From: an uncultured Planctomycetia bacterium
Lineage (GTDB): Bacteria; Omnitrophota; Gorgyraeia; 2-02-FULL-51-18
Assembly: GCA_964431835.1 (NCBI GenBank)
Contig: CAYSKO010000002.1
Span: 137,632-201,631, forward strand
Direction: 5' to 3'
DNA: 64,000 nucleotides
Below, piece after piece: positions 22,441 to 63,028 of the stretch (positions are counted from its first letter, which is position 1; each line of letters opens with the position of its first letter). A model generated the notes under the pieces. The model made no database searches and was not told the origin of the DNA. It saw only the letters and a list, made by a program, of their open reading frames with translations. A program made the position numbers and the translations under genes.

Positions 22441-23934
22441 TTATACCCTCGGGGCCTCAGATAGGGCCACCAAGAGCCTGCCGTCGGTCTCATCGACCAC
22501 CGAATACCGGGAACGAAGGTAGGATTCGAGGCCGGGAGCGTCGTCGAGTACCTTCGCGGAGGCGATGACGTAATAATCGGCTCCCTGCGCGCGCAAAAGT
22601 TCCATCTCCACGATCAGGGATTCTGCGGCGTGCGGCCGCACGTAAAAAGCCCACCCTTTCCGGTTGCAGTAGTAGAGCTGGATAGTTCCGGTGTCGTAGC
22701 TCGCGACGACGAGGCTGTCGGGCGGCGTGAGCCGCTGAACGGCTTCGCCCGTGGCGACGATGCGGCGCTGGGGCTCGGGAATGAAATAAATGCCCCGATA
22801 GAAATACCCAGCGTTCGCCGCCGAAAGGACTCCGAGAAGCGCGAGCGACGCCCAAAGTGTTTTTCGCGGCACGCGCTCCCCCAGAAGGACCCAACCCTTC
22901 CCCATCAGGAACGCGAGCGGCGGCGCGAGCGGGATCTGATAATACGAGTGGTCGATCAGTATCCGCCAAAAGAAAATGACGTACACGACCGACGCGGCGA
23001 GCCAGGCGTAGAACACCTTGTTCTTTTCGGGCGCTTTCGAGAAAAGGCCGGCGGCGGCAAGGACAACACCGAGCGGCGTCAAGAGATGGAAGACAAAATA
23101 CTTGGCGACGGGTCGCAGGAACGACGGAGCGAAGAGCGCCCAGTAGCTCACCCCTTCCGGCCCGCGGTTCTTCACGAAATCGTACGGCCGGTAGATCAGG
23201 CGCGGATCGTCGACGCCGGCCTTCCACATGAAGTAATACCAAACGAGCGGCGCGAGCGCGGCCGCCAGATATGCCCAATGCGCGTGGTCCCGCAGGAAAG
23301 AGGCTCCCCGGTAACGCCACGCCAGATACAGCGCCGGCAGGAAGAGGTACAGCGAGTGCACTTTCGTCGCGACCGCGAACGCCATGAGGAGCGCCGAGAG
23401 CGCCAGGAACCTCGCCTTCCCGGTCTCGTAGTGCAGATACAGGAAATACAGGGTGCCCGTCGACGCGAACATCATCGCAGCTTCAGGCTGGAGCGCGCGC
23501 GAGACCGCGAGATAGAGAGGCGAAAAGGCGAGGAACACGAGCGCGGGCAACGCGTGCCGGGCATCGTACAAGCGCCGAAGGAAAAGGTAGACGAAAGCGA
23601 GCGAGCCCATCGAAAAAAGGACGGACACCAGGCGGGACGCCCACTCGCGCGCACCCCCGGCCATGAGATACATGAGCGCCATCAGGTACGAATAGACCGG
23701 CATTTCGGCGTTGTAGAGATACGGGCCGGGGCCGTTCTCGTCGATCTCAGGATAAAAGAAGTTGAAGCCGTGCTGGTAGAAGTTGCGCGCGACCGTGGCC
23801 ACGATCGCCTGGCGGGAAAGGCTGTTGTACGGCTCTACGATCGGGAGGTCAAGCTGATAAACGCGGAAGAAGAACGCGCCCGCGAAGACGAGGGCCGCGG
23901 CCTTTTCGAACGGCTTAAGCGCGGACCAGCGCAT
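22441..23934 (-). CDS. GT-C membrane glycosyltransferase, ArnT/PMT_2-like (GT39/GT83-type)
   Basis: About 11 TM helices plus a periplasmic C-terminal domain. Order and partner genes match ArnT context (next gene is ArnC-like). Confidence 0.7.
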   Translation of the reverse strand: MRWSALKPFEKAAALVFAGAFFFRVYQLDLPIVEPYNSLSRQAIVATVARNFYQHGFNFFYPEIDENGPGPYLYNAEMPVYSYLMALMYLMAGGAREWASRLVSVLFSMGSLAFVYLFLRRLYDARHALPALVFLAFSPLYLAVSRALQPEAAMMFASTGTLYFLYLHYETGKARFLALSALLMAFAVATKVHSLYLFLPALYLAWRYRGASFLRDHAHWAYLAAALAPLVWYYFMWKAGVDDPRLIYRPYDFVKNRGPEGVSYWALFAPSFLRPVAKYFVFHLLTPLGVVLAAAGLFSKAPEKNKVFYAWLAASVVYVIFFWRILIDHSYYQIPLAPPLAFLMGKGWVLLGERVPRKTLWASLALLGVLSAANAGYFYRGIYFIPEPQRRIVATGEAVQRLTPPDSLVVASYDTGTIQLYYCNRKGWAFYVRPHAAESLIVEMELLRAQGADYYVIASAKVLDDAPGLESYLRSRYSVVDETDGRLLVALSEAPRV

Positions 23935-24649
23935 TGCGCCCGATCACCCGAAGGTAGCCCAGGATCGTCCGCCCGACCTTCATTTTGCTCTTTCCCACGC
24001 GCTGGTCGCCGCGCAGGATCATCGGAACCTCTTCGATCCTCATGCCGAGGCGCGCCATGCGCACGAGAAGCTCGAGCACGCACGCGAACCCTTTTTCCTC
24101 GTAAAAGTCGCCGTACTTCTCGAGAACACGGCGGAGCGTCTGGGGCTTGTACGCGCGGTAGAACGAGCTGTACGTGCGGATGCCCTTTATGCGGAACGCG
24201 AAGTTGATGAGGAAATTCGCGACGCGGCTGAGCAGACGGCGAAACCAGGTGGTTCCGCGCACCCCGCCGCCTTCGGCATAGCAGGACGCGAGGGTGACGT
24301 CACAGCCCACCCCGATCTTCCCCAGCATCGTCGGTAGGATCGAGAGATCGCTCGTGCCGTCCGCTTCCATCGTAACGATCATGTCGGAAGGCGCGGCGGC
24401 CGCGAGCGCGGCGTTCATTCCCCGGCGGAACGCCTCGCCGACGCCACGGTTGGGCTTGTAGGAGATCGGTTCCAAAGGATAAGACGCGGCCATGCCCGCG
24501 AGGACGGACGCCGTGGCGTCCGAGCTGCCGTCATCCACGACGATGAGCCGGTACGGGAGGCCTTCTTTCTTCGCGAACGCATCGGTCCGCTCGACGAGCC
24601 CGCGCACGTTCGCCTCCTCGTTGTAGGCGGGAACGACGAAAAGGATCAT
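23915..24649 (-). CDS. Polyprenyl-phosphate sugar synthase, GT2 (DPM1/ArnC-like)
   Basis: MILFVVPAYNEEANV...LIVVDDGSSD...EADGT (DxD/ED). ATG overlaps the upstream stop (ATGA). Confidence 0.8.
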   Translation of the reverse strand: MILFVVPAYNEEANVRGLVERTDAFAKKEGLPYRLIVVDDGSSDATASVLAGMAASYPLEPISYKPNRGVGEAFRRGMNAALAAAAPSDMIVTMEADGTSDLSILPTMLGKIGVGCDVTLASCYAEGGGVRGTTWFRRLLSRVANFLINFAFRIKGIRTYSSFYRAYKPQTLRRVLEKYGDFYEEKGFACVLELLVRMARLGMRIEEVPMILRGDQRVGKSKMKVGRTILGYLRVIGRNALVRA

Positions 24650-25617
24650 GCGCGGCGGGCGGCGATCACGCGGCGAAGCGCCTCTTCGAACGGCACGAGC
24701 GGCTCGTAACCGAGAAGCGTCTTTGCCTTCGAGAGGTCCGGAACGCGCCGCGCGATTTCGCGGTAGGAGCCGAAAACCTGCTTCATCGGGACGCGTTCCA
24801 CTTTGAGTCTCCCTTTCACGCCGAGTAGGCGGTGAATCATCTTCGCGCAATCGAGGACGCTCACTTCCTCGTCGTTGCCGACGTTCACGATCTCTCCGAC
24901 CGCCGTCGGGTTCTCGAGCGCGAGCAGGGTTCCACGCACGACATCGGAAACGTGCGCCATCGAGCGCGTCTGCGAGCCGTCGCCGTGGACCGTCACGGGC
25001 TTCCCCGCTGCAATCGACTCGATGAAGATCGGCACGTGCCCGCCGCTCCAGGTCGAGCTCGATCGCTCGCTGAAGCAGCCGAAATAGCGGAGCACCACAA
25101 CCGGAACGCCGTAATCCTTGTAATAGCTGAGCGCCAGATGCTCGGAGAAGAGCTTCGAGACCGCATACGCCCAGCGTTTGGCGTCCGGCGAGCCGCTCAC
25201 GCATTCGCCGTCCTCACGGAACGGAAGGGCCGTCGAGCCGCCGTAGACGTCCGACGTCGAACCGACGACGACCTTCGTCTTGCGGGCGCGCGCGGCCTCG
25301 AGCACCGATCGTGTTCCTTCCGCGTTCACGGTAAGGGTCGGGAGCGCCGGATCCTTCTCGGCGATCTTCTTGACCGCGGCCAAGTGCACGACGGCGTCGG
25401 CGCCTTTAACGGCTCGCGTGAGCTTCGCGGTGTCCAAAATGTCGAAACGCCGGAGCTCGAAACGCGGGTTCTTCGCGTGCTGCCGCACGTTCGCGGTCTT
25501 TCCGAACGAAAGGTCGTCTACTCCGATCACGCGGTGACCCATCGACAGAAGCTCGTCCGCCAGGTGCGAGCCGATGAGCCCGCAGACGCCCGTCACGACC
25601 ACGGTTTTCTTTTTCAA
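24646..25617 (-). CDS. NAD-dependent epimerase/dehydratase (SDR; UDP-glucuronate decarboxylase/ArnA-C-terminal-like)
   Basis: (L)KKKTVVVTGVCGLIGSHLADEL...YAVSKLFSE (YxxxK). TTG start with GGAGGG Shine-Dalgarno, overlapping the upstream stop (TTGA). Confidence 0.8.
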   Translation of the reverse strand: MKKKTVVVTGVCGLIGSHLADELLSMGHRVIGVDDLSFGKTANVRQHAKNPRFELRRFDILDTAKLTRAVKGADAVVHLAAVKKIAEKDPALPTLTVNAEGTRSVLEAARARKTKVVVGSTSDVYGGSTALPFREDGECVSGSPDAKRWAYAVSKLFSEHLALSYYKDYGVPVVVLRYFGCFSERSSSTWSGGHVPIFIESIAAGKPVTVHGDGSQTRSMAHVSDVVRGTLLALENPTAVGEIVNVGNDEEVSVLDCAKMIHRLLGVKGRLKVERVPMKQVFGSYREIARRVPDLSKAKTLLGYEPLVPFEEALRRVIAARRA

Positions 25618-26708
25618 GACTTCCCTCCTCGGTCCAGGAAACGCACGATTTCCTTCAATATTTGCTCCGACGCGTCGCCGCGCCCGTAAAGCTTGCCGGT
25701 CCGCCGGCCGCGTTTCGAAAGCTTCCGGAACGCCGCGACGATCTTCTTCGCGTCGGGTTCGCAAAGCGTGTTTCCGCCCGCGGCCAGCGTTTCGGTCCAC
25801 TCGGTCTCCTCGCGCAACGTCACGCACGGCACGCCTAACAGGAACGCTTCCTTCTGAACGCCGCCCGAATCGGTGACGATCCCGGCCGCGCTCTTCTCGG
25901 CCGCGAGCATTTTGAGATAAGGGAGTGGCTCGACGATCTCGATCCGGCCCGTTTTCAATACCTCGAGACGGAGGCCGTGAATCGCGTCGAGCTTCTTCGC
26001 CGTACGCGGGTGAAGCGGCATAAAAACTTTCCTGTCGAGCGAGGCGAGCGCGCGGAAGATGCGTTTCAGGCGCGCCGGGTCGTCGGTGTTCACGTTCCGG
26101 TGGATCGTCGCCAGGTAATACGGCTCGGACGCGCGCCGCGCGGCGATTGAGTGCTCGTAGTGGCGGAGGATGTCGGCCATCACGTCGCCGACGCGGTGCA
26201 CGCCCTTCCGGACGCCTTCCCGCTCAAGATGGCCGACGGCCGCTTCGGTTGGGCAAAAAAGGAGCGACGAGAGGCCGTCCGTCGCGATTCGGTTTACCTC
26301 TTCGGGCATCGCACGGTTTCCGCTTCGCAGGCCCGCCTCCACGTGCGCGACAGGTACGTTCAGCTTCGCGGCCGCAAGAGCACCGGCCAGCGTGGAATTG
26401 GTGTCTCCGAAGACGATAACCACGTCCGGCTTCTCTTTTATGAATACGTCTTCGAGGCGCTCGAGCATGAGCGCGGTCTGCGCGCCGTGCGAGCCCGAAC
26501 CAACCTTCAGGTTATAGCGCGGTTCGGGGATATTGAGCTCGTCGAAGAACACTTTCGACATCTTGTAGTCGTAGTGCTGGCCGGTATGGGCCCAAACGAG
26601 AGAAAGGCGCTTCGAAAGCGTCGAACGCGACCAGGCCGCGTGCAGCGCGGCGGCCTTCACGAACTGCGGGCGCGCGCCGACGACGGCGACCGCCTTGAAT
26701 TTCTTCAC
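25614..26708 (-). CDS. UDP-N-acetylglucosamine 2-epimerase (WecB family), paralog 2
   Basis: (V)KKFKAVAVVGARPQFVKAAAL...HTGQHYDYKMS...DTNSTLAGALAAAKL...HVEAGLRS. GTG overlaps the upstream stop (GTGA). Confidence 0.8.
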   Translation of the reverse strand: MKKFKAVAVVGARPQFVKAAALHAAWSRSTLSKRLSLVWAHTGQHYDYKMSKVFFDELNIPEPRYNLKVGSGSHGAQTALMLERLEDVFIKEKPDVVIVFGDTNSTLAGALAAAKLNVPVAHVEAGLRSGNRAMPEEVNRIATDGLSSLLFCPTEAAVGHLEREGVRKGVHRVGDVMADILRHYEHSIAARRASEPYYLATIHRNVNTDDPARLKRIFRALASLDRKVFMPLHPRTAKKLDAIHGLRLEVLKTGRIEIVEPLPYLKMLAAEKSAAGIVTDSGGVQKEAFLLGVPCVTLREETEWTETLAAGGNTLCEPDAKKIVAAFRKLSKRGRRTGKLYGRGDASEQILKEIVRFLDRGGKS

Positions 26709-27715
26709 AGGCGGACGGTGCGGCCGTCTGCCTTCAGGGATTTCGAGGCGGCCTGCAGGATCCGGAGGACGGCCAGTCCGTTCTCGCCGTCCGAATGCGG
26801 CTTCATGTTTTTCTCGACGCACTCCAGGAAATGCAGGCATTCGGCGCGCAGCGGCTCGACGTTCTCGACGTACGGCGCGTGCACTTCGCCCACGCGTAGG
26901 ACCATTGAGCTCGCCATCTCGTTCGCGCCGTTCAAGTCCACGCCCTTGTCGAAGATCTTCAGCTTGTCGGTGTGCTCCATGTCGTCGAAGACGACCATCT
27001 TGCGGCTTCCGACGACGGTCATGCGGCGCACCTTGTGCGGATCGAGCCAGCTTAAGTGGATGTGGGCGGCCTTGTCGTCCTTGAACTTGAAATCCATGAA
27101 GATGACGTCCTCGATCCCCCGGGCTTTCTGGATGTAGCTGAACCCGTGCGCGCTGACCGAGACGGGCGGTTTGGGGAAAAGTTCGAGGATCACGGAGATG
27201 TCGTGCGGCGCGAGACTCCAGAGCGCGTTCTCGTCCTTGCGCACCTGGCCGAGATTGAGGCGCTGGGTGTACATGTAGTACGTCTCGCCGAGTTCGCCCG
27301 AATGGAGGATTTCCTTCAGCTTCCGGACGGCCGGATGATAAAGGAGGAGGTGTCCAACCATGAGGCGTAGGCGCTTTTTCTTCGCGAGGCGGCACAGGTC
27401 CTCGGCGTGGCGAACGTCGAGCGCGATGGGCTTCTCGACGAACACGTGCTTCCCCGCTTCGAGTGCCTTCTTGGCGAACTCGTAATGGGACGGCGACGGG
27501 ACGGCGACGGCGACCGCGTCGATAGAAGAATCGTTCAGGATTTCGTCGTAGGAAGACGTGACGCGCACGTCGGGATAGAGCGAGGAGAATGAGGAAAGGA
27601 GTTCGGGACGGCGGTCGCACAGGCCTTTGAGCGCGCCCAACTCGCGAAAATGCCGGACTAGGTTTTTACCCCAATATCCGGCGCCGCAGACCGCGACCGA
27701 GGCTCTTTTTGACAT
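26705..27715 (-). CDS. Gfo/Idh/MocA family oxidoreductase
   Basis: MSKRASVAVCGAGYWGKNLVRHF...VEKPIA. ATG lies 6 nt downstream of a TATAGT -10 box. Confidence 0.8.
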   Translation of the reverse strand: MSKRASVAVCGAGYWGKNLVRHFRELGALKGLCDRRPELLSSFSSLYPDVRVTSSYDEILNDSSIDAVAVAVPSPSHYEFAKKALEAGKHVFVEKPIALDVRHAEDLCRLAKKKRLRLMVGHLLLYHPAVRKLKEILHSGELGETYYMYTQRLNLGQVRKDENALWSLAPHDISVILELFPKPPVSVSAHGFSYIQKARGIEDVIFMDFKFKDDKAAHIHLSWLDPHKVRRMTVVGSRKMVVFDDMEHTDKLKIFDKGVDLNGANEMASSMVLRVGEVHAPYVENVEPLRAECLHFLECVEKNMKPHSDGENGLAVLRILQAASKSLKADGRTVRL

Positions 27716-27757
27716 TTTAGGACTATAGCATCCGCGTCCGGAGCGGTCAATAAACCT
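27716..27757 (-). promoter_or_regulatory. Extended -10 promoter (TGCTATAGT) 6 nt upstream of the ATG; leaderless-type start of a sub-operon
   Basis: Minus-sense GGATGCTATAGTCCTAAA-ATG. Same GGATGCTATAGT motif recurs at about 30897-30910. Confidence 0.5.
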
Positions 27758-28693
27758 CTATCCCCCGGAGGCGTCCCGGCGCCAAACTTCGGCGCATTCG
27801 CCCATCGTGCGGATCTCGCGGCCGCTCGAAACGATAACCTCGAGAGCGCGCTCGAAATGCTCGCGCTTCTTGGCGAGCGGAATGCCGGCCCGCTCGAGAT
27901 GAATCTTGCGGGAGGGGTCGAGGTCGGCGGCGTCGGCCAGGTCCAGTGGATGAACGAGGTAGTAGAACGCGTCGCAGTCCGCGAGGCAGGACCGCAGGAG
28001 CTTCTCGAACCTTGGCCAGCCGAGAACGAACGAAAGCGTGTGCCAGCAGGCGACGCGGTAGCGGTTCGTCGGGAGCGGCAGGACGAGAATACCCGGCGAG
28101 GCGCCGGACGCGCGCGGGCGGAGGCCGCCGTCGCTCACAAACGGATGCCGCGGGCCCCAAAGTTGGGCGCCCAGGTCCTTCCGGCGGTGGATCCGCGCGA
28201 ATTTGTCGCTGCCCAAATGGTTGTAGAGATTTTTCGCGACGGCCACCGCCATGAGCCACGACGGGGCAAGCGAGGTGTCGTAGCCGTATCCGGCGTCGAT
28301 CAACCTACGCAGAAGCGCCGGCGACGTGGCCCAGCCCGGCGCGATGAAACCGCGCGGCGGCGTTCCGGCCGTTTCGGCGATGAGATCGTGCGCGGCATGC
28401 ACTTCCTTCGCGATCGCGGCGTCCGGAAGGCTCCCGAGATTGAGCGGGTGGGACCACGAATGGTTTCCGATCTCGTGTCCGTCCCCCGCCCACTCGCGCA
28501 CACGCGCGCGGTTCCGGGCCGATTCGAGGTCCCGGCCGATCAGGTACAGGCTGTACTTGAATTTGAAGCGTGCCGCGGCGTCCAAAAAACGGTCCGCGAT
28601 GCGGAAAAAGGACGGATCTTCGTAGCCTGCGGGAAATCCGTAGGCTTCGTTCAGCGAATCGAAGTTCACGTTGATCGCGGCGAGTTTCTTCAC
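27758..28693 (-). CDS. Polysaccharide deacetylase family (CE4/NodB homology; ArnD-like deformylase candidate)
   Basis: NVNFD...IGNHSWSHP (NodB motifs). GTG start 1 nt after the upstream stop. Confidence 0.75.
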   Translation of the reverse strand: MKKLAAINVNFDSLNEAYGFPAGYEDPSFFRIADRFLDAAARFKFKYSLYLIGRDLESARNRARVREWAGDGHEIGNHSWSHPLNLGSLPDAAIAKEVHAAHDLIAETAGTPPRGFIAPGWATSPALLRRLIDAGYGYDTSLAPSWLMAVAVAKNLYNHLGSDKFARIHRRKDLGAQLWGPRHPFVSDGGLRPRASGASPGILVLPLPTNRYRVACWHTLSFVLGWPRFEKLLRSCLADCDAFYYLVHPLDLADAADLDPSRKIHLERAGIPLAKKREHFERALEVIVSSGREIRTMGECAEVWRRDASGG

Positions 28694-28694
28694 G

Positions 28695-34650: not shown

Positions 34651-34657
34651 CCGCTCG

Positions 34658-34816
34658 TCAGAAGAGAGTGTAAATGAGCGGGGCGACGGCCGAAGAATGT
34701 GTGACGATGATGAGAAGGCCGATCACGACGAGCATCGTCAGAATCGGCAGAAGGACGAGGTTCCGTGTCGACGTCATGAACCCGAAGAGCGCTTTCAGAT
34801 CTTTAAGGGAGCGCAT
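34658..34816 (-). CDS. Small membrane protein (52 aa), SxtK/DUF5989-like; commonly accompanies carbamoyltransferases
   Basis: MRSLKDLKALFGFMTSTRNLVLLPILTMLVVIGLLIIV...; ATG preceded by GGAAAGGA. Confidence 0.55.
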   Translation of the reverse strand: MRSLKDLKALFGFMTSTRNLVLLPILTMLVVIGLLIIVTHSSAVAPLIYTLF

Positions 34817-34829
34817 GGGTATCCTTTCT

Positions 34830-35213: not shown

Positions 35214-35224
35214 CGGCGCTCCCA

Positions 35225-38046: not shown

Positions 38047-38050
38047 TCTA

Positions 38051-45947: not shown

Positions 45948-46007
45948 AGGGCTTCGTCCATGCCGTTCAGCATAACACGCCGCTCCCGGAGATGGAAAGC
46001 GCGGGCC

Positions 46008-46027
46008 ATCGCGGTTATAATGGAGAC
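46008..46027 (+). promoter_or_regulatory. TATAAT -10 box 6 nt upstream of the suhB-like ATG (leaderless-type)
   Basis: GGTTATAATGGAGAC-ATG. Confidence 0.45.
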
Positions 46028-50691: not shown

Positions 50692-50762
50692 TTATTTTGA
50701 CACGGAAGAACGAAAGGGCTTATACGTTCGTGCGCGGCCGGCCGCCGAGGACGAAGGGGTTG
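50692..50762. repeat. Direct repeat copy B. Here it forms the genuine 3' end of gene 50720..52483 (last 13 codons plus 28 bp downstream).
   Basis: ttattttgacacggaagaacgaaagggcttatacgttcgtgcgcggccggccgccgaggacgaaggggtt. Confidence 0.8.
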
Positions 50763-55583: not shown

Positions 55584-56854
55584 GTGGAGCGAGACGCCTC
55601 GACGACACGCGGTTCGGGCAGCGGCACGATGAATTTGCCGCGGTATCCCCTCGCGAAGAGCTTTGGAATCAGCTCATCGGCGATGTGCCAGGAAAGAAGA
55701 AGCGCGTATTCGGGCTGGTCCTCGAAAAGCTTCGATTCCTCGAGAACGGGGATCAGCGTGCCCGGCATGTACTTTCCGATCTTGTATGAACCCTTAATCT
55801 CAAGCACGCAGTCGACGATCGCGTCGTCGAGCCCGACGTAGTTGACGAGCGTACTCGCCCGGGACGGCGCCCCGATCGCATAAATGCGCGCGTTCTTCTT
55901 CTTGGCTTCGAGAAGGAGTGCGTGGAGCGTCATCTTCGAGCGGACGACCCCTTCGCGAAAGCGTTTCACGACCGATTTCGTCTCGGGTTCGGAGGCGAGC
56001 ATCTCCGCCACGGACGGACGCACCGGGTACGCACCTTTCTTGGCGGCATACACGCGAATCGAGCCGCCGTGCGTGGGGATTCTTTTTGCGTGAACCACTT
56101 CAAGGCCGTGGCGCTCGAGGAGATATTTCAGGCTTCGCAGCGAATAGTAGCGCAGATGCTCGTGGTAGATCGTATCGTACTGCAAGGTCTCGACGAGCGG
56201 AACCCAGTAGTGCGACTCGGAAACGAACATCCCCTTCTCGCCGAGCATGTGAACAACTCCCTCGACGATCGAATGGACGTCCTCGATGTGAGCGAACACG
56301 TTCGTCGCAGTCACGATCGACGCGGGCCCCTGCTCGGAACGCGCGCGCCGGGCGGCTTCCGCGCCGAAGAAAGCGGTCAGAGTCGGGATGCCGCGCGAAG
56401 CCGCGACTTTGCCCATGTCGGTTGGCTCGATGCCGAACACGCGGTGCCCGCCTTCTTTGAAATTCGAAAGAAGCGTCCCGTCGTTGGAGCCGACGTCGAC
56501 GACGAGGCTCTCGGGATCGAGGGGCAGGAGCGTGCGGCATTCGCGGTAGAGCTCGGCGAAATTCTCGCGGAGAATTTTCGTCGTACCGCTCGAATAGGGA
56601 TATTCCGGAGGAAAAAGGATCGCCGGATCGACCACGAGCCCGAGCTGGACGAGGTCGCATGCGGGGCAATGGAGAAGCTCGGCCGGATACGCCGGCTGTT
56701 CCTTCGGTCGCTCGCCGATCTTCCACATCTGGTTCACCGGCGGAAGGTAGCCGAGGAATAGGATCGATTCCAGATTCCGACCTCCGCAAACCTGACAGCA
56801 CTCGACGGTCACGCTCCCGCCGGTTCCGGCTGCGAGCTTAGAACTAGGATTCAT
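55580..56854 (-). CDS. SAM-dependent C-methyltransferase (NDP-hexose C-methyltransferase-like; zinc-finger N-terminus, Methyltransf + C-methyltransferase C-domain)
   Basis: CCQVCGGRNL...CPACDLVQL; VVDVGSNDGTLL (motif I). ATG overlaps the upstream stop (ATGA). Confidence 0.7.
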   Translation of the reverse strand: MNPSSKLAAGTGGSVTVECCQVCGGRNLESILFLGYLPPVNQMWKIGERPKEQPAYPAELLHCPACDLVQLGLVVDPAILFPPEYPYSSGTTKILRENFAELYRECRTLLPLDPESLVVDVGSNDGTLLSNFKEGGHRVFGIEPTDMGKVAASRGIPTLTAFFGAEAARRARSEQGPASIVTATNVFAHIEDVHSIVEGVVHMLGEKGMFVSESHYWVPLVETLQYDTIYHEHLRYYSLRSLKYLLERHGLEVVHAKRIPTHGGSIRVYAAKKGAYPVRPSVAEMLASEPETKSVVKRFREGVVRSKMTLHALLLEAKKKNARIYAIGAPSRASTLVNYVGLDDAIVDCVLEIKGSYKIGKYMPGTLIPVLEESKLFEDQPEYALLLSWHIADELIPKLFARGYRGKFIVPLPEPRVVEASRST

Positions 56855-57843
56855 GAAACGGGCTCCTTTGCGTTTGGCGCCATGTGCGCGTGGGCGGCGT
56901 ACCATTCGGCGGTGCGGCGTACGCCTTCGGCGAGCAGAACGCGGGGCTTGTAGCCGAGCGCCTCGAGCTTGCGGATGTCCGGGCAGCGGCGGAGCGTTCC
57001 GCCTTTAGCCGCCTCGCCGGGCACGAGTTCGATCGAACGGCCGAACGGCGCGGCCACGTGGTGGGCGAGCTCGGCGATCGACGTCTCTTCCGACGTGCCG
57101 ATGTGATAGATCCCCAGATGAGCGCCCTTTTCCACGACGAGCATGAGCCCGTCCGTGAAGTCGTCCACGTGGACGAACGCGCGTGTCTCCCGGCCGCTGC
57201 CTTGGATCCGGAATTGGAGCGTGCCGGAGCTTTGGGCGTCCGAAAGACGCTTCATGCGAAGTGCAAACTGCGGAACGACGTGCTCCCAGCCCATGTCGGG
57301 GCCGTAGACGTTGTGCGGACGGAAGATCACCGCCCGCTTGAAGCGCGTGCGGGCCCAGTTGACAAGCATCACCTCGCTGATGAGCTTCCCCGCGCCGTAG
57401 GAGTAGCGAGCGTTGAGGACATCCGGAACGACGAGCGGGACATCCTCGGGAGTCGGCACGACCGCCGGGGTCTGGTAGGCCTCAGAGCTCGAGGCGAGCA
57501 CGAATTCGGGCACGCGGTTCTCGACGCACGCGTCGAGCGCGTTCAGCATGCCGCGCACTCCCACGTCGAGGACGAGCTCCGGCTTCGTGTAGAAAAATTC
57601 GGTTCCGTTCACGAACGCGAGGTGGCAAAAAACATCCACGCCCCGCGCGGCGTTTTTCACGGCGGCGGCGTCTCGCACGTCACCCTCGATGAACTCGATG
57701 TCGCCGGATGCGCCTTCCAAGCGGCGCGCGGCACCCCGCGAGAGATTGTCGAGAACCCGCACGCGGTTTCCGGCAGCGAGAAGCTTCTTTACGAGCGCGG
57801 CGCCGAGGAACCCGGCGCCTCCGGTAACGAGGTAAGTTTTCAT
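56851..57843 (-). CDS. NAD-dependent epimerase/dehydratase (SDR)
   Basis: MKTYLVTGGAGFLGAALVKKLL...YSYGAGKLISE (YxxxK). ATG overlaps the upstream stop (ATGA). Confidence 0.8.
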   Translation of the reverse strand: MKTYLVTGGAGFLGAALVKKLLAAGNRVRVLDNLSRGAARRLEGASGDIEFIEGDVRDAAAVKNAARGVDVFCHLAFVNGTEFFYTKPELVLDVGVRGMLNALDACVENRVPEFVLASSSEAYQTPAVVPTPEDVPLVVPDVLNARYSYGAGKLISEVMLVNWARTRFKRAVIFRPHNVYGPDMGWEHVVPQFALRMKRLSDAQSSGTLQFRIQGSGRETRAFVHVDDFTDGLMLVVEKGAHLGIYHIGTSEETSIAELAHHVAAPFGRSIELVPGEAAKGGTLRRCPDIRKLEALGYKPRVLLAEGVRRTAEWYAAHAHMAPNAKEPVS

Positions 57844-58865
57844 GCGCAGGACACCCATGCTTTCTTGTCGTCCGATTCGTCGACGGCCTCGAGAAGCTCC
57901 TGAACGCGAGCGCCGTCGGCGAGCGTGGGTCCGGTCTTCTCTCCCCGCTCGATCCAGCGGGCCCAGCGCGAGAGCATCGAAGCCACGAGCGGGATCCGTC
58001 CGTCGCCGGAAACTTTAGGTTCGTTGACCGCGACGTCGGCAAGGTAGTTGCCCGAGGCCCGCGTGCCGTAACGCAGGCGAAAACCGGCCGCGTGGTCGGG
58101 ACCGGCGTTCTCGAGGACGAGCGCCCCTTTGTCACCGTAGAACTCGATCCGGTGGCCGCTTCCGAGGAACGCATCGGTCCCGATGACGGCCGCACCCGCG
58201 GCGCCCGAAGCGAATTCGAAAGAGTAATGGGCGAGGGTCTTTCCGCGCTCGGGTTTGCCGGGAGCGGCGTACGACCGCGCTGAAAGGCGCTTGGCCGGGC
58301 CGAGGAACCACTCAAGATAATGCAGGACGTGCGAAGCGAACTGGTAGGAGACGCCGCCGCCGGACTCGTCCGCGTGCTTCCAGGTGTCGAGGCCCATCTT
58401 GATGGCGTAGGTTTCGATCTGCCACGAGACAGACGCTTGCCGGAGCGTGCCGATGCCGCCCTTGCGGAGGATCTCGCGGGTGCGGCGCCACGCTGGAATT
58501 TCGCAGAGTTCGAAATCGACGAGATTCGCGACGCCTTTCTCGTGGGCGAGATCGGCCATGCGCCGGGCGCGCCGGGCGTCTACGCCCAGAGGCTTTTCGC
58601 AGAAGACGTGCTTTCCGCGCTTCATCGCGGCGAGCGCGATCTCGGGTTGGAGCGAAGGAGGGACGGCGATGACGACGGCGTCTATTTCCGGATCAGCGAC
58701 GAGGCGGCTCCAATCGCCGTAAGAGCGCGCGATGCCCGTGCGGGCGGAGGCGGAGGCGGCACGCGCGTCGGTGGACGCGCAGATCGCCGCTGGTTCGAAG
58801 CGCGGAACCGCGCGGAGCGCCGGCAGGATCACTCTCTCGCCGAAACCCGTCCCCACGAGCCCCAC
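57840..58865 (-). CDS. Gfo/Idh/MocA family oxidoreductase (WbpB-like candidate)
   Basis: (V)GLVGTGFGERVILPAL...FCEKPL. GTG start 20 nt after the upstream TAA; the R-rich ORF extension is not credible. Confidence 0.7.
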   Translation of the reverse strand: MGLVGTGFGERVILPALRAVPRFEPAAICASTDARAASASARTGIARSYGDWSRLVADPEIDAVVIAVPPSLQPEIALAAMKRGKHVFCEKPLGVDARRARRMADLAHEKGVANLVDFELCEIPAWRRTREILRKGGIGTLRQASVSWQIETYAIKMGLDTWKHADESGGGVSYQFASHVLHYLEWFLGPAKRLSARSYAAPGKPERGKTLAHYSFEFASGAAGAAVIGTDAFLGSGHRIEFYGDKGALVLENAGPDHAAGFRLRYGTRASGNYLADVAVNEPKVSGDGRIPLVASMLSRWARWIERGEKTGPTLADGARVQELLEAVDESDDKKAWVSCA

Positions 58866-58885
58866 CCGGATAGATCCGCGCTTGC

Positions 58886-60112
58886 TTATATCCGCACCCC
58901 TTTCCCGAAGAAGCCCCAAATGTCGACCAGGGGCTTCCCCTTCGTCTCGAGCGCGCGGTACGCCTTGTGCGGCACACAGAGAATGAGGACGTCGCTTTTT
59001 TTCACGACCTCCTCGACCGGCAGGAGTTCGGCGTCGGTGGTCACGTGCGGATCGGCCGTGAGCACGCGGCGGCAATGGAATGCGAGCACCTTCTTGAGTT
59101 TATAACTGAGCGACGCGCGCGTGTCGTCGCTATTGGCCTTGAACGCCATACCCAAGAGGCCGACCGTCAGGTTCTTTAGGTCGTATTTTTTTTCCATCTG
59201 GCCGACCATGTAGAGGACGAGGCCTTCGTTGATCGTCATCGCGGCGTGGCCGAGACTGAAATTGTTGTCGGAGAAAGCGGCGAGCTGCATCGTGTCCTTG
59301 AAAAGACACGGACCCGCCGCGAAACCGGCGCCCGGCATGTCGGCGGCACGCGGGTAGTCCTTTTTCATCCCCTCGAGGATGCGCGCGTAATCGGCGCCGG
59401 CCGAGTGCGCGATCATGAAAAATTGGTTCGAGACGGCGAACTGGACGTAGCGGTAGGCGTTGTTGAAAAGCTTCGCGAATTCCGCCTCGAGCGGCGAAAG
59501 ACGCACGACACTCGGCGCCACGCGCTCGAAAAGCCGGGCGGCCTCGCTTTCGGATTCCTTCGTCGTTCCGCTAACGATCTGCGGCAGACGCTGGAGCTCC
59601 TCGATCGCGTGCCCCTGGACGACTCGTTCCGGACAAAAGGCGATCTTGAGCTTCCGGCCCTGGGATTTAAGGTAGCTCTCGAGCCATTGTGTGGTGCCGG
59701 GATAAACGGTGGACCGGAGAACGACGAGCTGGCCGTCGGTGAGGTTCGGAAGCAGGTCGTCGAAGCAGTGCTTCATGACCTTCGTGTCCGGATTCATGAA
59801 TTCGTCGACCGGCGTGCCGATTGTGACAACAACCGTGGTGACTCCCGCGATGTCGCGGGGATCGGAGGAAAAAAGGAGATTGCCGCCTTTCAGCGCTTTC
59901 TTAAGGAGAGCTTCCCCGCCCTGCTCCATGAAAGGCAGCACGCCTTTGCGGATGCGACGGAGCGAGTCGCGGTTGATGTCGTAGACGACGACGCGGAGGC
60001 CCTTGTCGGCGAACACGAGCGCCAGCGGCAGGCCGACGTGACCGGCTCCGCCGACCACGCAGACGTCCGCCTTTCGGACCGAAGCGGGCTTTTTCGTTGT
60101 CGTCTTTTTCAT
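58886..60112 (-). CDS. Nucleotide-sugar dehydrogenase (UDP-glucose/GDP-mannose dehydrogenase family; WbpA/WecC-like candidate)
   Basis: MKKTTTKKPASVRKADVCVVGGAGHVGLPLALVFA...CPERVVQG...GAGFAAGPCLFKD (catalytic Cys). ATG overlaps the upstream stop (ATGA). Confidence 0.85.
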   Translation of the reverse strand: MKKTTTKKPASVRKADVCVVGGAGHVGLPLALVFADKGLRVVVYDINRDSLRRIRKGVLPFMEQGGEALLKKALKGGNLLFSSDPRDIAGVTTVVVTIGTPVDEFMNPDTKVMKHCFDDLLPNLTDGQLVVLRSTVYPGTTQWLESYLKSQGRKLKIAFCPERVVQGHAIEELQRLPQIVSGTTKESESEAARLFERVAPSVVRLSPLEAEFAKLFNNAYRYVQFAVSNQFFMIAHSAGADYARILEGMKKDYPRAADMPGAGFAAGPCLFKDTMQLAAFSDNNFSLGHAAMTINEGLVLYMVGQMEKKYDLKNLTVGLLGMAFKANSDDTRASLSYKLKKVLAFHCRRVLTADPHVTTDAELLPVEEVVKKSDVLILCVPHKAYRALETKGKPLVDIWGFFGKGVRI

Positions 60113-60660
60113 CGCGCTCCCCGGCGCTCCCCCTCGGGCGCCATGCGTCCGCGGGCCACCGCGAGCGCCAGCACCGAGAGGTTCAGCGAGTGATCGAAGC
60201 GCCCGTCGCGCACCGCGCGCCAAAAAGCGGACCGCGTCACCGTCTCGACGCGGATTCCGGCCTCAGGGCCCTTCGAACGAGTGGATAGTTTAACATCGGG
60301 TGCGAAATAACACCATAAGCGGTTGGACATCCGGCCCATGTCGGTCGCGAGGACCCCGATGAATTCGAGCCGCCGCGCCTGGTAACCGGTCTCCTCCAGA
60401 AGCTCGCGCTTGATCGCGCGCTCCGGCTTCTCGCCTCGCTCGACCATTCCGCTCGGGAACTCGAGCGTCCTACGCTCGACCGCCGCACGAAACTGGCGCA
60501 CGAGGACGATCTTACCCTCTGCGGTGACGGGGATCACGGTCGAATAATCGCCGAGCGCGAGCGAATAATAGGCATCGCCCTTTTCACCGGTGACGGTTTT
60601 TGCGACCACCCTGAACCAGGCGGTCTCGAACACGGTCTCGCGCTTGGAAATACGGCTCAA
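60109..60660 (-). CDS. NUDIX hydrolase
   Basis: GMVERGEKPERAIKRELLEETG (Nudix box). TTG start overlaps the upstream stop (TTGA). Confidence 0.7.
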   Translation of the reverse strand: MSRISKRETVFETAWFRVVAKTVTGEKGDAYYSLALGDYSTVIPVTAEGKIVLVRQFRAAVERRTLEFPSGMVERGEKPERAIKRELLEETGYQARRLEFIGVLATDMGRMSNRLWCYFAPDVKLSTRSKGPEAGIRVETVTRSAFWRAVRDGRFDHSLNLSVLALAVARGRMAPEGERRGAR

Positions 60661-62282
60661 GCTTCGTCCTCCCTCAGGTCGTAAACGAAGATGGAATGCC
60701 CAATCACGGCGGTAGGCTGGATCTCCGTGGTCCACCGGACGGCGTCGATTCCGTGCGCGCCGATCGCATAGAAGTTGGCTTGCGGCTCTTCCATCTCGGC
60801 GGGCTCGAGCGGCCGCGTCCAAATGCGGTATTGGCGGGGGTCGGCCGGGCCATAATAAAAGAGCGCAACTTCCGGATTTCCCACGCGTTTCACGTACGCG
60901 GCAAGAGACGGTAGATCCTGCCCCCAATCAAGATTCGAATCCCGCAGAATTCGGTACCCTTTGTCGGGCCCTCCGGAAGCTTCATTGAAGTACGCGAGCG
61001 GGTGAGGAAAGATCAGTGCCGCCGAAAGCGCGTGCCACGCCAAGAGCGCCGCGGCGAGAGCTTTCCACGCGCGCCCGCGCGCCCAAAGATAGGCGAGCGT
61101 GGCACCCGACAGCGCGAAGAGTAAAGGATAGATCGGGAGAAAATAACGGATTCCCGCCTGCGCGCGGTCGTTCAGGGTGGCCGCGAAGAAAAAAGCAACG
61201 GGAACGAGGCAGACGGCCGCGTCGAGCCGCGGCAAGCGCAGGCGGCGGACCAGGAAGAAAGAGCTGATCGAAAGAAAGACGAAAGGCAGCGTGTTTTTCA
61301 CCGCGAAGGCGATGAAATAGTAATACCACCAGCCTTTGCCCGACCACTCCCCGAGAAGAAACGCGTTCGTCCCCCGCGCGCGCGTCACAAGCATGCTGAC
61401 AAGGGCCGACGAAAAGGTGGAAAGCGGCACCGGCGCCTGCCGGGCGAACCGAACGAAAGACTCTCCGCCGACGCTCCGGTAAACGGCCTCTTTCTTGGCA
61501 GGATCCGGCGTGTTCTCGAGAAGCGGTTTCAGCTCGAAACAGTAACCGGCCCAGATGGTCAGGAGCGTGACGCCGAGGAACCCGGCGATTTTAGCGGGCG
61601 AAAGAGCCCGGAAACGGCCGCCGAAAAGCGCGATGAGCGGCAGGAGCGGCAGGAGGACGAGCGCCGTAAACTTCGAAAGGAAAGCGGCGCCGGCCCAAAC
61701 CCCGGTCGTGAGCGCTTTTTTCCAGCTGGGTTCCTCGAGGTACGAGCCGAAACCCGCGAGCGTCAAAAAAATGAAGAAGGCCACGGCCAGATCCGCCGTG
61801 GCGAGCGAAGAGTGTGCGATCACGTTCGGACAGAACGCGTAGAGCGCGAGCGCGCCGAGCGCCGCGGCCGGTCCGAATCTCCGGCGCGTCCAAGCGAACA
61901 GCACCGCGCCGAAAAGAAGCGAGAGCACGAGGATCGGCAGGCGCGCGAGGACGATCAACCTCTGCGCGTCTTCGCCCGACTCGTAGAAGAATTTTCGCGC
62001 GTAGGCGGGAGCGTTGCCTTCGCGCCAGGAGACGTCGTCGAGCGGCGCGCGGACGCGGGTGAAAAGAAGCGGCAGGGCGGTCAGCATCCGGGGTAGCGGC
62101 GGCGAAGCAGGGTTCATACGGAAGTCGCGCGTGACCCAATACGAGTGGCCGCTCGGGACGTGGTGCGAAAACTCGTCCGACGTCGGCGACTGAGAGAAGA
62201 CCGGCGGCACGGCCTGCAGGCAGAGCGCGCCGAGAAGAAGGGCCGCGAGGAGGTTTTCCCGGCGGAAGAACGCCGCGTTCAC
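60657..62282 (-). CDS. GT-C membrane glycosyltransferase (PMT_2/ArnT-like)
   Basis: About 11 TM helices plus a periplasmic C-domain. Immediately downstream of a DPM1-like GT2. GTG overlaps the upstream stop (GTGA). Confidence 0.7.
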   Translation of the reverse strand: MNAAFFRRENLLAALLLGALCLQAVPPVFSQSPTSDEFSHHVPSGHSYWVTRDFRMNPASPPLPRMLTALPLLFTRVRAPLDDVSWREGNAPAYARKFFYESGEDAQRLIVLARLPILVLSLLFGAVLFAWTRRRFGPAAALGALALYAFCPNVIAHSSLATADLAVAFFIFLTLAGFGSYLEEPSWKKALTTGVWAGAAFLSKFTALVLLPLLPLIALFGGRFRALSPAKIAGFLGVTLLTIWAGYCFELKPLLENTPDPAKKEAVYRSVGGESFVRFARQAPVPLSTFSSALVSMLVTRARGTNAFLLGEWSGKGWWYYYFIAFAVKNTLPFVFLSISSFFLVRRLRLPRLDAAVCLVPVAFFFAATLNDRAQAGIRYFLPIYPLLFALSGATLAYLWARGRAWKALAAALLAWHALSAALIFPHPLAYFNEASGGPDKGYRILRDSNLDWGQDLPSLAAYVKRVGNPEVALFYYGPADPRQYRIWTRPLEPAEMEEPQANFYAIGAHGIDAVRWTTEIQPTAVIGHSIFVYDLREDEA

Positions 62283-63028
62283 CGCGCCGAGGTCCGGCCG
62301 AAGTAAAGCCGCACGAGAGAAAAATAGCCCGAGATCGTCTTGAGGGGCCGGTTCTTGCTCTTCCCCGGCTTCTTGCCGTAATCGAGCGTGAACGGGACCT
62401 CGACGATCCGCGCGTCGAGGAGACGCATCTTGATGAGGATCTCCGGCGTGACGACGAAACCCTTGTGCGGCAGGCGCACGAAATTCTCGCCGAAGGTGTC
62501 GAAGGCGCGTTTCAGGATGGACGCGCGGAAAACCCGGTAGCCGCAGCTGTATTCCTGCACGCCCGGGATCGGGAAGAAAACTTTGAGGAAAAGCCCTGCG
62601 CCGCGCGAGAGGACGCTTCGGACCGGCGAGAGACCCTTCTCCCCGCCGCCGGGTGCGTAGCGCGAAAGGATGGCGACGTCCGCGCCTTCGCGGAGCTTCG
62701 CGAGTGCGGCGTGCACGTACTTCGGCTCGTGCGTGTCGTCGCAGTCGAGCGTCACGACCGCGTCGCCGGGCGCGGCTTCACGCGCGCAGTGCTCGAGGCC
62801 GTCGATCATCGTACGTCCGAGCCCCTGGTTTTTCTCGTGACGAAGCAGCGTAAGCGGATAAACCATGCCCAGGCGCCGTGCGGCCTCGGCCGTGCCATCA
62901 GTCGAGCCGTCGTCCAAGACGACTATCTTATAAAGCTCCGCGCCGCGCGAAAGCTCGGCGTCGAACTTCGGCACCAGCCGCTCGAGAGCGACTTCTTCGT
63001 TGTACGCCGGCAGGAAGACCCAGATCAT
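62279..63028 (-). CDS. Polyprenyl-phosphate sugar synthase, GT2 (DPM1/ArnC-like)
   Basis: MIWVFLPAYNEEVALERL...IVVLDDGSTDGT...LDCDDTH. ATG overlaps the upstream stop (ATGA). The R-rich ORF extension to 63619 is not credible. Confidence 0.8.
   Translation of the reverse strand: MIWVFLPAYNEEVALERLVPKFDAELSRGAELYKIVVLDDGSTDGTAEAARRLGMVYPLTLLRHEKNQGLGRTMIDGLEHCAREAAPGDAVVTLDCDDTHEPKYVHAALAKLREGADVAILSRYAPGGGEKGLSPVRSVLSRGAGLFLKVFFPIPGVQEYSCGYRVFRASILKRAFDTFGENFVRLPHKGFVVTPEILIKMRLLDARIVEVPFTLDYGKKPGKSKNRPLKTISGYFSLVRLYFGRTSAR

Follow-up and report, generated by a model that had tools for sequence, protein, structure and literature searches.

We analyzed a stretch of 64,000 nucleotides, called the window here, from an uncultured Omnitrophota bacterium (GenBank assembly GCA_964431835.1, contig CAYSKO010000002.1, positions 137,632 to 201,631 of the forward strand). 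The subject is a set of three gene pairs in this window, each consisting of a short family 2 glycosyltransferase (GT2) and a glycosyltransferase of the GT-C fold, together with the further GT-C genes around them. By GC3 (third-codon-position G+C) frame analysis and metagenome gene calls, the window holds 56 genes, 54 of which are on the minus strand, and 32 of the 55 gene junctions overlap, giving an operon-like layout. The G+C content is 61-67%, and the sequence is identical to that of metagenome contigs (JGI 3300020596 and others). Judging from the gene content, the window appears to cover the greater part of a cluster of 66 kb or more, nearly all on one strand, that would make a surface glycan in this uncultured Omnitrophota bacterium. 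The cluster starts at a DegT gene just past the right edge of the window, which is itself preceded by menaquinone genes. It extends past the left edge, since we found there a PMT_2-type GT-C of 496 amino acids (aa) (L009 14642-16132), following a GT4 gene that crosses the edge, and a fragment resembling a DPM1-like GT2 (L009 16089-16595, 50 bits). The fragment follows the 496-aa GT-C, two contigs end there, and the two genes are possibly a fourth pair in reversed order.

In the direction of transcription, the cluster begins with DegT, GT2, GT-C and NUDIX genes. These are followed by genes for an NDP-sugar (nucleoside diphosphate sugar) dehydrogenase, a GFO oxidoreductase, a short-chain dehydrogenase/reductase (SDR), a C-methyltransferase, a GT2, a YfhO-like GT-C, a secreted 587-aa protein, an acetyltransferase and an aminotransferase, and then by an orphan GT-C, a secreted 1297-aa protein, a methyltransferase, a GDSL hydrolase, a carbamoyltransferase, a GT87-like GT-C and WecB. 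Next come a chimeric gene, formyltransferase-like and deacetylase-like genes, GFO, WecB, SDR, GT2, GT-C and HTH_17 genes, and lastly a Pse/Leg-type (pseudaminic/legionaminic acid) nonulosonic-acid block with a Wzx gene, another orphan GT-C, Leloir GT2s, a third WecB and a GT4. The three GT2/GT-C modules thus share one layout, in which nucleotide-sugar tailoring genes precede a DPM1/PpgS-type GT2 without a transmembrane (TM) helix, which precedes a GT-C. An earlier note on this sequence had located the three pairs; all six of its coordinates proved exact, the genes translated cleanly, and all but the YfhO-like one gave Pfam Glycos_transf_2 or PMT_2 matches. The same note had described the genes of each pair as adjacent, codirectional and overlapping, and the sequence bears this out, with overlaps of 20 nt in pair 1, 1 nt in pair 2 (TGATG) and 4 nt in pair 3 (GTGA). 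The adjacency exceeds chance: when the labels of the 56 genes, among them 3 such GT2s and 6 GT-Cs, were shuffled 200,000 times, all three DPM1-like GT2s directly preceded a GT-C in 0.08% of the shuffles (P ≈ 0.0008).

Features of the window, with the glycosyltransferases of the three pairs first
Feature	Position	Strand	Basis or remark
GT2, pair 1, 244 aa, no TM helix	23915..24649	-	Glycos_transf_2, 58 bits; predicted variant synthase, 'EAD', Cys at the Arg117 position
GT-C, pair 1, 497 aa, PMT_2, variant subfamily	22441..23934	-	66 bits; 20-nt overlap with GT2
GT2, pair 2, 245 aa, no TM helix	54846..55583	-	Glycos_transf_2, 61 bits; predicted polyprenyl-phosphate sugar synthase
GT-C, pair 2, YfhO-like, 786 aa	52486..54846	-	Homologs and predicted fold
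GT2, pair 3, 249 aa, no TM helix	62279..63028	-	Glycos_transf_2, 82 bits; predicted polyprenyl-phosphate sugar synthase
GT-C, pair 3, 541 aa, PMT_2	60657..62282	-	50 bits; 'SDEF' motif after TM1; GTGA start overlaps GT2 stop
GT-C, 562 aa, PMT_2, no adjacent GT2	43057..44745	-	44 bits; 'HQDEP' after TM1
GT-C, 604 aa, PMT and PMT_2, no adjacent GT2	4276..6090	-	32-35 bits; 'GQDEL' motif; metagenome gene call
Sixth GT-C, 430 aa, about 10 TM helices, divergent GT87/PIG-M/PimE-like	33358..34650	-	Predicted fold and distant profile relatives
In-frame chimera, SDR N-terminal half and C-terminal ~300 aa of GT87-like GT-C paralog	29507..30868	-	Epimerase match at residues 7-138 only
Wzx-type flippase (Polysacc_synt_3), 492 aa	15817..17295	-	Sole flippase candidate in window
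Tailoring genes upstream of pair 1: formyltransferase-like, deacetylase-like, GFO (UDP-GlcNAc 3-dehydrogenase-like), WecB, SDR	24646..29510	-	
Tailoring genes upstream of pair 2: NDP-sugar dehydrogenase, GFO oxidoreductase, SDR, C-methyltransferase	55580..60112	-	
Nonulosonic-acid (Pse/Leg-type) block	12628..22130	-	Contents in text
Leloir (cytoplasmic) part: partial GT4, WecB, two non-DPM1-like GT2s (260 and 312 aa)	1..3472	-	
DegT-family aminotransferase	63025..64000	-	Upstream of pair 3; first cluster gene; full gene 373 aa, runs off window
SGNH/AlgX-like putative O-acetyltransferase or esterase	30941-32278	+	
Inositol-monophosphatase-like gene	45992-46831	+	

The three GT2s score well above the Glycos_transf_2 (PF00535) gathering score of 23.3. 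For all three, the best solved relative was the dolichyl-phosphate mannose (Dol-P-Man) synthase of Pyrococcus furiosus (PfDPMS, 5mlz), aligned over about 220-235 residues (pair 3, E 7.6e-24, residues 3-235; pair 1, E 1.4e-20; pair 2, E 8e-14). The next solved matches were ArnC or GtrB, and for the pair-1 GT2, ArnC was the second best (E 5e-13). The higher-scoring NCBIfam matches include PpgS, ArnC, AglJ, Dol-P-hexose transferase and PgfS, most of which are polyprenyl-phosphate sugar synthases; the best match was PpgS for two of the three (pair 2, E 5e-15) and ArnC for the pair-1 protein. No hydrophobic segment was found at a Kyte-Doolittle threshold of 1.6, and a threshold of 1.3 gave one weak internal segment. 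The proteins end about 75 residues past the GT2 domain, and C-terminal TM helices of the GtrB/ArnC/CsbB type were not found. The DPM1-like, nonprocessive character that had been proposed for these enzymes was thus upheld: at 244 to 249 aa, without a TM helix, without the length expected of a processive synthase and with PfDPMS as the best match, the three GT2s, as judged from their sequences, are not processive synthases. PfDPMS deprived of its TM domain still localizes to the membrane and retains full activity (PMC5526996), so TM-less synthases are plausible here, as in human DPM1, Ppm1-D2, PpgS and GacI. Orthologs of the pair-3 GT2 in L012, L014, L015, L029 and L060 are 59-69% identical to it, and those of the pair-2 GT2 in L019 and L061 are 63-65% identical. 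We also considered the 312-aa GT2 at the left end as a fourth, GtrB-like synthase for the GT-C at 4276 and rejected it; it lacks a TM helix, is of the Glyco_tranf_2_3 type and scored below 1e-5 against the DPM1-like profile.

We then mapped the GT2 residues onto those described for PfDPMS (PMC5526996) and compared 35 Omnitrophota homologs. All three GT2s retain the equivalents of Glu12, Asp39, Asp91, Ser207 and Lys/Arg208, as do nearly all of the homologs; the metal-binding Asp91 is present in all three and in 35 of 35. The acceptor loop, G-x-S-K/R (R202...G-E-S-K208 in PfDPMS), reads GKSK, GRSR and GKSK in the three proteins, and its Ser207 and Lys/Arg208 are found in 32 and 27 of the 35 homologs, respectively. 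The pair-3 GT2 keeps the equivalents of Glu12, Asp39, Asp89, Asp91, Arg117, Arg131, Ser135 and Lys208. At the acceptor-phosphate positions Arg117/Arg131/Ser135, pair 3 has R/R/S, pair 2 has R/K/V and pair 1 has C/R/S. The pair-1 signatures 'EAD' and 'ASCY' are kept in syntenic orthologs that are 58-61% identical in L060 and L061.

With respect to the GT-Cs, classification with hidden Markov models, which the earlier note had suggested as a check, placed four proteins above the gathering scores of PF13231 and PF02366 (26.1 and 22.7; PMT_2 26.1), with the YfhO-like protein below its own threshold. Two of the four had been named as PMT_2-like genes outside the pairs. The gene at 43057..44745 matched as described. 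For the other, given as 4276..6190, the family assignment held (PMT and PMT_2) while the interval did not: it meets five stops, and the gene is the shorter one listed in the table (the open reading frame [ORF] from the first start codon is 4276..6156). An acidic D-E motif lies directly after a TM helix in three of the four PMT_2 proteins (4276-6090, 43057-44745 and 60657-62282), and among 60 relatives the Asp is present in 54 and the Glu in 40. The subfamily of the pair-1 GT-C has its own conserved first-loop motifs, 'P-I/F-V/L-E' and 'YPEIDENG'. Five of the six GT-Cs in the window have Lys or Arg before TM1, and the motif follows about 3-15 residues after TM1. An acidic motif right after a TM helix is what is expected of such enzymes, and the outward orientation of the catalytic loops is what we infer from the positive-inside rule and from homology to ArnT, PimE and ALG6. 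Orthologs of the pair-3 GT-C, about 50-54% identical, occur in at least six Omnitrophota loci; in relatives, the gene directly upstream of the YfhO-like one is an ortholog of the GT-C at 43057 (45-50% identical).

The GT-C of pair 2 had been called YfhO-type. Its homologs and its predicted fold agree with this, whereas its Pfam YfhO (PF09586) score does not reach the threshold (18.1 versus 28.5 bits), the match covers only residues 715-750 (the C-terminal 36), and NCBIfam gave no match. According to precomputed annotation, several homologs that are 40-46% identical, and most weaker ones, carry PF09586. The AlphaFold2 model of the 786-aa protein (predicted local distance difference test score [pLDDT] 91, predicted template modeling score [pTM] 0.91) has its TM helices in bundles, with a beta-domain spanning roughly residues 600-750 and a last helix at 756-785. 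Foldseek placed ArnT first, then AftD, AftA, STT3, Emb and Pmt4, and matches at E <= 1e-3 were exclusively GT-Cs. Asp36, directly after TM1, is invariant. The model thus points to a divergent YfhO-family member with a confidently predicted GT-C fold. This subfamily is almost confined to metagenome-assembled genomes of Omnitrophota, some of which are labeled 'uncultured Planctomycetia'.

Five GT-Cs had been counted in the window, but six are intact: a 430-aa protein had been overlooked, as had a truncated paralog of it. The 430-aa protein has no Pfam or NCBIfam match, even at an E value of 0.1. Its AlphaFold2 model (pLDDT 85, pTM 0.88) matched GPI-MT-I (9wno, E 9e-5), ALG6 (6snh, TM score 0.64) and PimE (9dm7, TM score 0.50) in Foldseek, as well as PIG-U and ArnT. 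His21 and Asp23, after TM1, are invariant in the 13 sequences found by word-indexed search; when the search was made with a full profile, it yielded 1,173 cluster representatives. Since distant profile members match GT87 (31-36 bits; cutoff, 25) and PIG-U (38 bits), we take the protein to be a divergent GT87-like branch, one missed by current Pfam and NCBIfam models. Its paralog forms the C-terminal part of the chimeric gene, is 37% identical to residues 106-414 of the 430-aa protein and lacks the His/Asp loop; the other half, an extended SDR, has GxxGxxG but not YxxxK. Gene calls for three further contigs from this population include the chimeric ORF, which is probably a deletion-fusion remnant. 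By sequence and predicted fold, then, the window holds six intact GT-Cs, with a seventh just beyond its left edge, in three families (PMT_2, YfhO-like and GT87-like). The three GT-Cs without a GT2 of their own probably draw on the same lipid-sugar donors or on housekeeping ones.

A survey of gene neighborhoods, which had also been suggested as a check, found arrays of GT-Cs and GT2s in 41 Omnitrophota loci, located by a genome scan using an alignment of eight close sequences. These loci hold 120 GT-Cs and 36 short DPM1-like GT2s (about 3:1), typically in the order '2-C-Y-C', with up to six GT-Cs in one 22-kb stretch and 46 cases of directly adjacent GT-C genes; YfhO loci outside Omnitrophota lack the array. 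Genes for NeuB, PseB, DegT and carbamoyltransferase are repeated neighbors of the arrays. Module 1 (the GFO, WecB, SDR, GT2, GT-C, HTH_17 and nonulosonic-acid genes) is syntenic in L060 and L061, which also hold a GT87-like gene, and L060 holds an MptA_B-family GT-C. The whole tailoring set of pair 2 recurs with the pair-2 GT2 ortholog in L019 and L061, with different partners. The ortholog keeps the C-methyltransferase/SDR/GFO module of the window; it precedes a pair-1-like GT-C in L019, and in L061 a GDSL gene and a pair-3-like GT-C stand where the window has the YfhO-like gene. The three pairs stand as pairs, but the independence that had been claimed for them is not supported, as partners are swapped between genomes. 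We found no description of this system, nor anything on glycosylation or lipopolysaccharide, in the phylum-level Omnitrophota papers that we searched.

The sugar pathways around the pairs differ from one module to the next, and almost all of the tailoring enzymes score below the NCBIfam equivalog cutoffs, so exact sugars are not assignable. The nonulosonic-acid block comprises NeuB, a GNAT protein, PseB-like and PseC-like enzymes, a GNAT-formyltransferase, Wzx, a CMP-transferase, GFO and HisH/HisF-like genes. Three paralogous UDP-GlcNAc 2-epimerases are encoded on the minus strand (662-1747, 25614-26708 and 32237-33361), and both of the two that were scanned against NCBIfam pass the WecB cutoff. 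A soluble 614-aa protein (6187-8031, minus strand) weakly matches the BFO_1060 family over its C-terminal 160 residues (53 versus 200 bits). This family includes a Tannerella forsythia Pse/Leg-derivative transferase acting on ManNAcA, and the similarity makes the 614-aa protein a candidate cytoplasmic nonulosonic-acid transferase. At 11453-14048 (minus strand), HisH- and HisF-like genes adjoin a gene for a 376-aa Cys-rich protein without a Pfam match; the trio may be akin to the WbuX/WbuY/WbuZ-type amidotransferase sets for acetamidino sugars. A trio of carbamoyltransferase (NodU-like), GDSL hydrolase and methyltransferase genes at 35225-39049 (minus strand) recurs beside GT-C arrays in L022 and L026 (carbamoyltransferase, up to 1009 bits) and suggests carbamoylated or methylated sugars.

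The general scheme into which the pairs would fit, in which a GT-A enzyme makes a polyprenyl-phosphate sugar, a flippase carries it across the membrane and, on the outer side, a GT-C hands the sugar on with inversion (PMC8035078, PMC11754754), has been established for GacI/K/L, CsbB/YfhO, SccN/M with SccP/Q, and PpgS/Rv3779 (PMC8035078, PMC11754754, PMC3485146). In Streptococcus pyogenes, GacI/GacJ/GacK/GacL add the GlcNAc side chain of the group A carbohydrate; as predicted here, a GT-A/GT2 enzyme without a TM helix makes the lipid-linked sugar, the proposed flippase is Wzx-type and not GtrA-type, the GT-C is of the PMT_2 type, and the genes lie within a polysaccharide locus (PMC8035078). The window differs from that system in lacking a GacJ-like partner and in its numbers, three synthases and six or more GT-Cs where S. 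pyogenes has one of each, and its host comes from a phylum that is presumably diderm, is related to the PVC (Planctomycetes-Verrucomicrobia-Chlamydiae) group and is not Gram positive. Streptococcus mutans SccN/SccM and SccP/SccQ offer a parallel for several synthase/GT-C pairs in one polysaccharide locus; each of the two pairs adds a side-chain sugar at a different position, and a further transferase uses one shared lipid donor (PMC11754754). Both of those pairs use UDP-Glc, whereas each pair in the window is preceded by its own, different tailoring genes, and here the GT-Cs outnumber the synthases and fall into three families.

Short TM-less GT2s are also found in Mycobacterium tuberculosis, in PpgS (Rv3631)/Rv3632/Rv3779 and in Ppm1-D2, where GT-Cs transfer the sugar extracytoplasmically (PMC3485146). 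Many mycobacterial GT-Cs share one lipid-sugar donor, and GT87/PimE-like and MptA_B-family GT-Cs occur here or in relatives. However, the PpgS scores of 51-55 bits are far below the cutoff of 370, so the GT2s are not PpgS orthologs; there is no membrane partner like Rv3632 or Ppm1-D1 in the window, and its genes are clustered, in contrast to the scattered mycobacterial ones. The order of a GT2 followed by a YfhO-family GT-C, presumably with the same chemistry, is that of CsbB/GtcA/YfhO in Bacillus, Listeria and Staphylococcus (PMC8035078), but CsbB is membrane anchored and uses the GtrA-type flippase GtcA, neither of which applies here. In addition, the window protein is below the Pfam YfhO threshold, and Omnitrophota are not expected to have teichoic acids, which are the known acceptors. 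The ArnC/ArnD/ArnE-F/ArnT system likewise combines a GT2 with a PMT_2/GT83-like GT-C, and formyltransferase- and deacetylase-like genes lie near pair 1, but ArnC has C-terminal TM helices, ArnE/F are absent here and the sugar pathway differs. The archaeal and eukaryotic Dol-P-Man synthases (PfDPMS and human DPM1), which go with PMT/ALG GT-Cs, include the closest solved relative of all three GT2s, and the GT2s share the TM-less form of human DPM1 and the conserved catalytic core and acceptor loop (PMC5526996). They differ in the mannose-contacting residues, in the absence of a DPM2 or DPM3 analogue from the window and in their donors, which, from the neighboring genes, are probably UDP-linked modified aminosugars and not GDP-Man. 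The mechanism itself is ordinary and fits established multicomponent transmembrane glycosylation. What differs is its scale and setting: a single operon-like cluster of a little-known phylum brings together three synthases, each with a sugar module of its own, and seven or more GT-Cs from three families.

We consider it reasonably probable, from sequence, structural models and analogy, that the locus encodes multicomponent transmembrane glycosylation of the GacI/K/L, SccN/M or PpgS/Rv3779 type. In such a pathway, Leloir transferases (GT4, two GT2s and the BFO_1060-like candidate) would assemble, linked to a lipid, a glycan with ManNAc-derived sugars and a nonulosonic acid of the Pse/Leg type, which the Wzx-type flippase would export. 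Amphipathic interface helices would keep each DPM1-like GT2 at the membrane, where it would load one modified sugar, taken from its nucleotide, onto polyprenyl phosphate. The lipid-linked monosaccharide would be flipped by the Wzx protein or by a flippase encoded elsewhere, since there is no dedicated GtrA in the window, and the GT-C would then pass the sugar, with inversion, to an acceptor at the periplasmic face. The most likely acceptor, and the most economical guess, is the glycan that this locus itself produces; among the other possibilities are proteins and lipid A as acceptors and a periplasmic assembly line. Enzyme activities, topology, the matching of GT-Cs to donors, sugar identities and the acceptor are all what we infer from the genes. 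Families, folds, motifs and conservation support the extracytoplasmic glycosylation through GT2 and GT-C enzymes that the earlier note had proposed, and neither of the two outcomes that it had named as refuting the idea was obtained: the GT2s do not classify as processive synthases, and the GT-C loops would face the exterior.

Several observations weigh against this interpretation. No GT2 passes an NCBIfam equivalog cutoff (ArnC, 58 of 529 bits; PpgS, 55 of 370; AglJ, 48 of 325; PgfS, 38 of 500), the sugar-contacting (mannose) residues Gln93, His94 and Lys178 are not conserved, and Cys replaces the phosphate-binding Arg117 in the pair-1 GT2 and Val replaces Ser135 in that of pair 2. The pair-1 GT-C (22441-23934) lacks the canonical D-E Asp at the aligned position, and in the protein at 4276-6090, whose N-terminal ~100 residues have an ambiguous topology, about four predicted helices precede the acidic motif. 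Three GT-Cs searched against the chains of the PDB had no sequence-level match to solved GT-Cs, which is why fold comparison was used for these proteins. As GT2/GT-C partners differ between genomes, adjacency is no proof of donor-acceptor pairing. The window has neither a GtrA-type flippase nor a small GacJ/DPM3-like membrane partner. The earlier note had also seen no GtrA-type flippase, and our search of both strands for ORFs of 50-260 aa with at least three hydrophobic segments agreed, yielding no GtrA, ArnE/F or GacJ-like candidate; a Wzx-type flippase is nevertheless present. Finally, an initiating phosphoglycosyltransferase, Wzy, WaaL and export machinery were not identified in the window, which makes the acceptor polymer a putative one. 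A reading in which pair 1 is decaying, suggested by the GT2 Cys, the GT-C without the D-E Asp and the chimera nearby, was rejected, since both deviations are conserved in syntenic orthologs.

The abundance of GT-Cs raises a different division of labor, in which they act in sequence, some of them processively, and build the glycan backbone outside the cytoplasm instead of adding single side-chain decorations. Mycobacterial PimE, MptA/B, Aft and Emb and the ALG enzymes of the endoplasmic reticulum (ER) lumen are parallels. We regard this periplasmic assembly line as tentative and on the whole unlikely. The 120 to 36 ratio of GT-Cs to short GT2s, the 46 GT-C/GT-C adjacencies in 41 loci, the coexistence of three or four GT-C families (PMT_2, YfhO, GT87-like and, in L060, MptA_B-family) and the failure to find Wzy, an initiating transferase or an exporter in the window speak for it, but the ordinary Leloir transferases and Wzx would suffice for a repeat-unit pathway, the window GT-Cs are scattered among sugar modules and not arrayed, and processivity and an order of action find no support. 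Extended to the phylum, the proposal would be that 3-7 GT-Cs of several families, fed by 1-4 TM-less DPM1-type synthases, build much of the nonulosonic-acid-bearing envelope glycan periplasmically, which we think doubtful. If true, it would be a one-locus bacterial counterpart of mycobacterial arabinomannan or ER-lumen glycan assembly, and it might shape the surface that ultra-small, host-dependent cells show to their hosts. To protein acceptors (pilins, adhesins or other secreted or surface proteins), modified as in Ppm1/Pmt O-mannosylation in Actinobacteria or by streptococcal PgfS/PgfM, we give slightly less credence again. Two GT-Cs match the PMT family, the PMT-type D-E motif is carried by three of the four PMT_2 proteins, PgfS is among the NCBIfam matches of all three GT2s, and the 614-aa protein weakly resembles the T. 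forsythia nonulosonic-acid transferase of a protein O-glycan. The secreted 1297-aa BNR/fn3/LamG protein, encoded 21 nt after the GT-C at 43057, would be a candidate substrate, but it has no homolog beside the arrays in the 41 related loci. A disordered, Ser/Thr-rich stretch that could act as acceptor was not found, and the richest 40-residue window of the 1297-aa protein is ordinary. Moreover, PMT_2 proteins in known bacterial systems act mostly on glycopolymers or lipid A (PMC8035078), and a locus with Wzx and Leloir transferases is typical of polysaccharide repeat units.

Two further explanations concern the donor side. Module 1 might be Arn-like, with a formylated or acylated aminosugar placed on undecaprenyl phosphate, deacylated, flipped and moved by an ArnT-like GT-C to lipid A or core, altering the surface charge. 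ArnC is the second-best solved match and the best NCBIfam match of the pair-1 GT2, formyltransferase-like and Polysacc_deac_1 genes lie just upstream of pair 1 and recur in L061, and ArnT is the top structural match of the YfhO-like model and also matches the 430-aa model. We nevertheless find this explanation very improbable and rejected an Arn pathway for module 1, as all equivalog scores are far too low (ArnC, 58 of 529 bits; ArnA, 30 for the formyltransferase-like gene and 84 for the SDR versus 777; ArnB-like DegT scores below 631). There is no ORF for an ArnE/F-like small membrane protein and no UDP-GlcA decarboxylase assignment, WecB and the UDP-GlcNAc 3-dehydrogenase-like enzyme indicate an N-acetylhexosamine-derived sugar and not 4-amino-4-deoxyarabinose, and the module is linked to the nonulosonic-acid block, not to lipid A genes. 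Least credible of all is that the short GT2s extend a diphosphate-linked undecaprenyl oligosaccharide in the cytoplasm, with the GT-C-fold neighbors as polymerase, ligase or flippase-associated proteins (Agl23, PIG-U), so that the pairing carries no donor-synthase meaning. The GT2s pass no equivalog cutoff, partners are swapped between genomes, the 430-aa model matches PIG-U, a noncatalytic GT-C-fold protein, and two GT-Cs weakly match the Agl23 'flippase activity-associated' family, but at 20-28 bits versus a cutoff of 126. Against this stand the best match to DPMS, which spans the full length and takes in both the acceptor loop and the interface-helix region, the start/stop overlaps in all three pairs with their nonrandom adjacency, and the conserved acidic loop residues typical of catalytic GT-Cs.

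The Omnitrophota are bacteria that have not been cultured; most are ultra-small, and they may live as predators or parasites. Under the preferred interpretation of transmembrane glycosylation of the locus's own glycan, their gene content suggests that they invest heavily in extracytoplasmic, lipid-phosphate-sugar-dependent glycosylation linked to nonulosonic acids. The analysis supplies gene targets in the three TM-less synthases with their different upstream sugar pathways, among them a variant with a conserved Cys at the Arg117 position, and its main value lies in Omnitrophota envelope biology and in the unannotated GT87-like branch.

Some other genes of the cluster deserve mention. The secreted 1297-aa protein (39142-43035, minus strand) has a signal peptide, a BNR/Sortilin propeller, fn3 and LamG; we rejected it as a conserved acceptor on the strength of the neighborhood survey. 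Directly downstream of the YfhO-like gene lies a gene for the 587-aa protein (50720-52483, minus strand), which has an N-terminal signal-anchor-like helix; Pfam, NCBIfam and the PDB gave no match for it, and the related loci encode no homolog. On the plus strand there are just two genes, each overlapping the end of a minus-strand neighbor, and gaps between genes hold the NUDIX gene and the inositol-monophosphatase-like gene. The sole large intergenic gap in the cluster spans 574 bp (34651-35224); scans for consensus promoters, terminators, Rfam families and tRNAs found none there. A FAD oxidoreductase (44742-46058, minus strand), whose stop overlaps the start of the GT-C at 43057 by 4 nt, passes the NCBIfam cutoff for L-2-hydroxyglutarate oxidase (310 versus 299 bits) and is an odd member of a glycan cluster. 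A small HTH_17 gene encoding 82 aa (22142-22390, minus strand) sits between the last GT-C and the nonulosonic-acid genes, as it does in all five divergent genomes concerned (the window, L004, L005, L060 and L061), and it may be a conserved regulator or mark an operon boundary.

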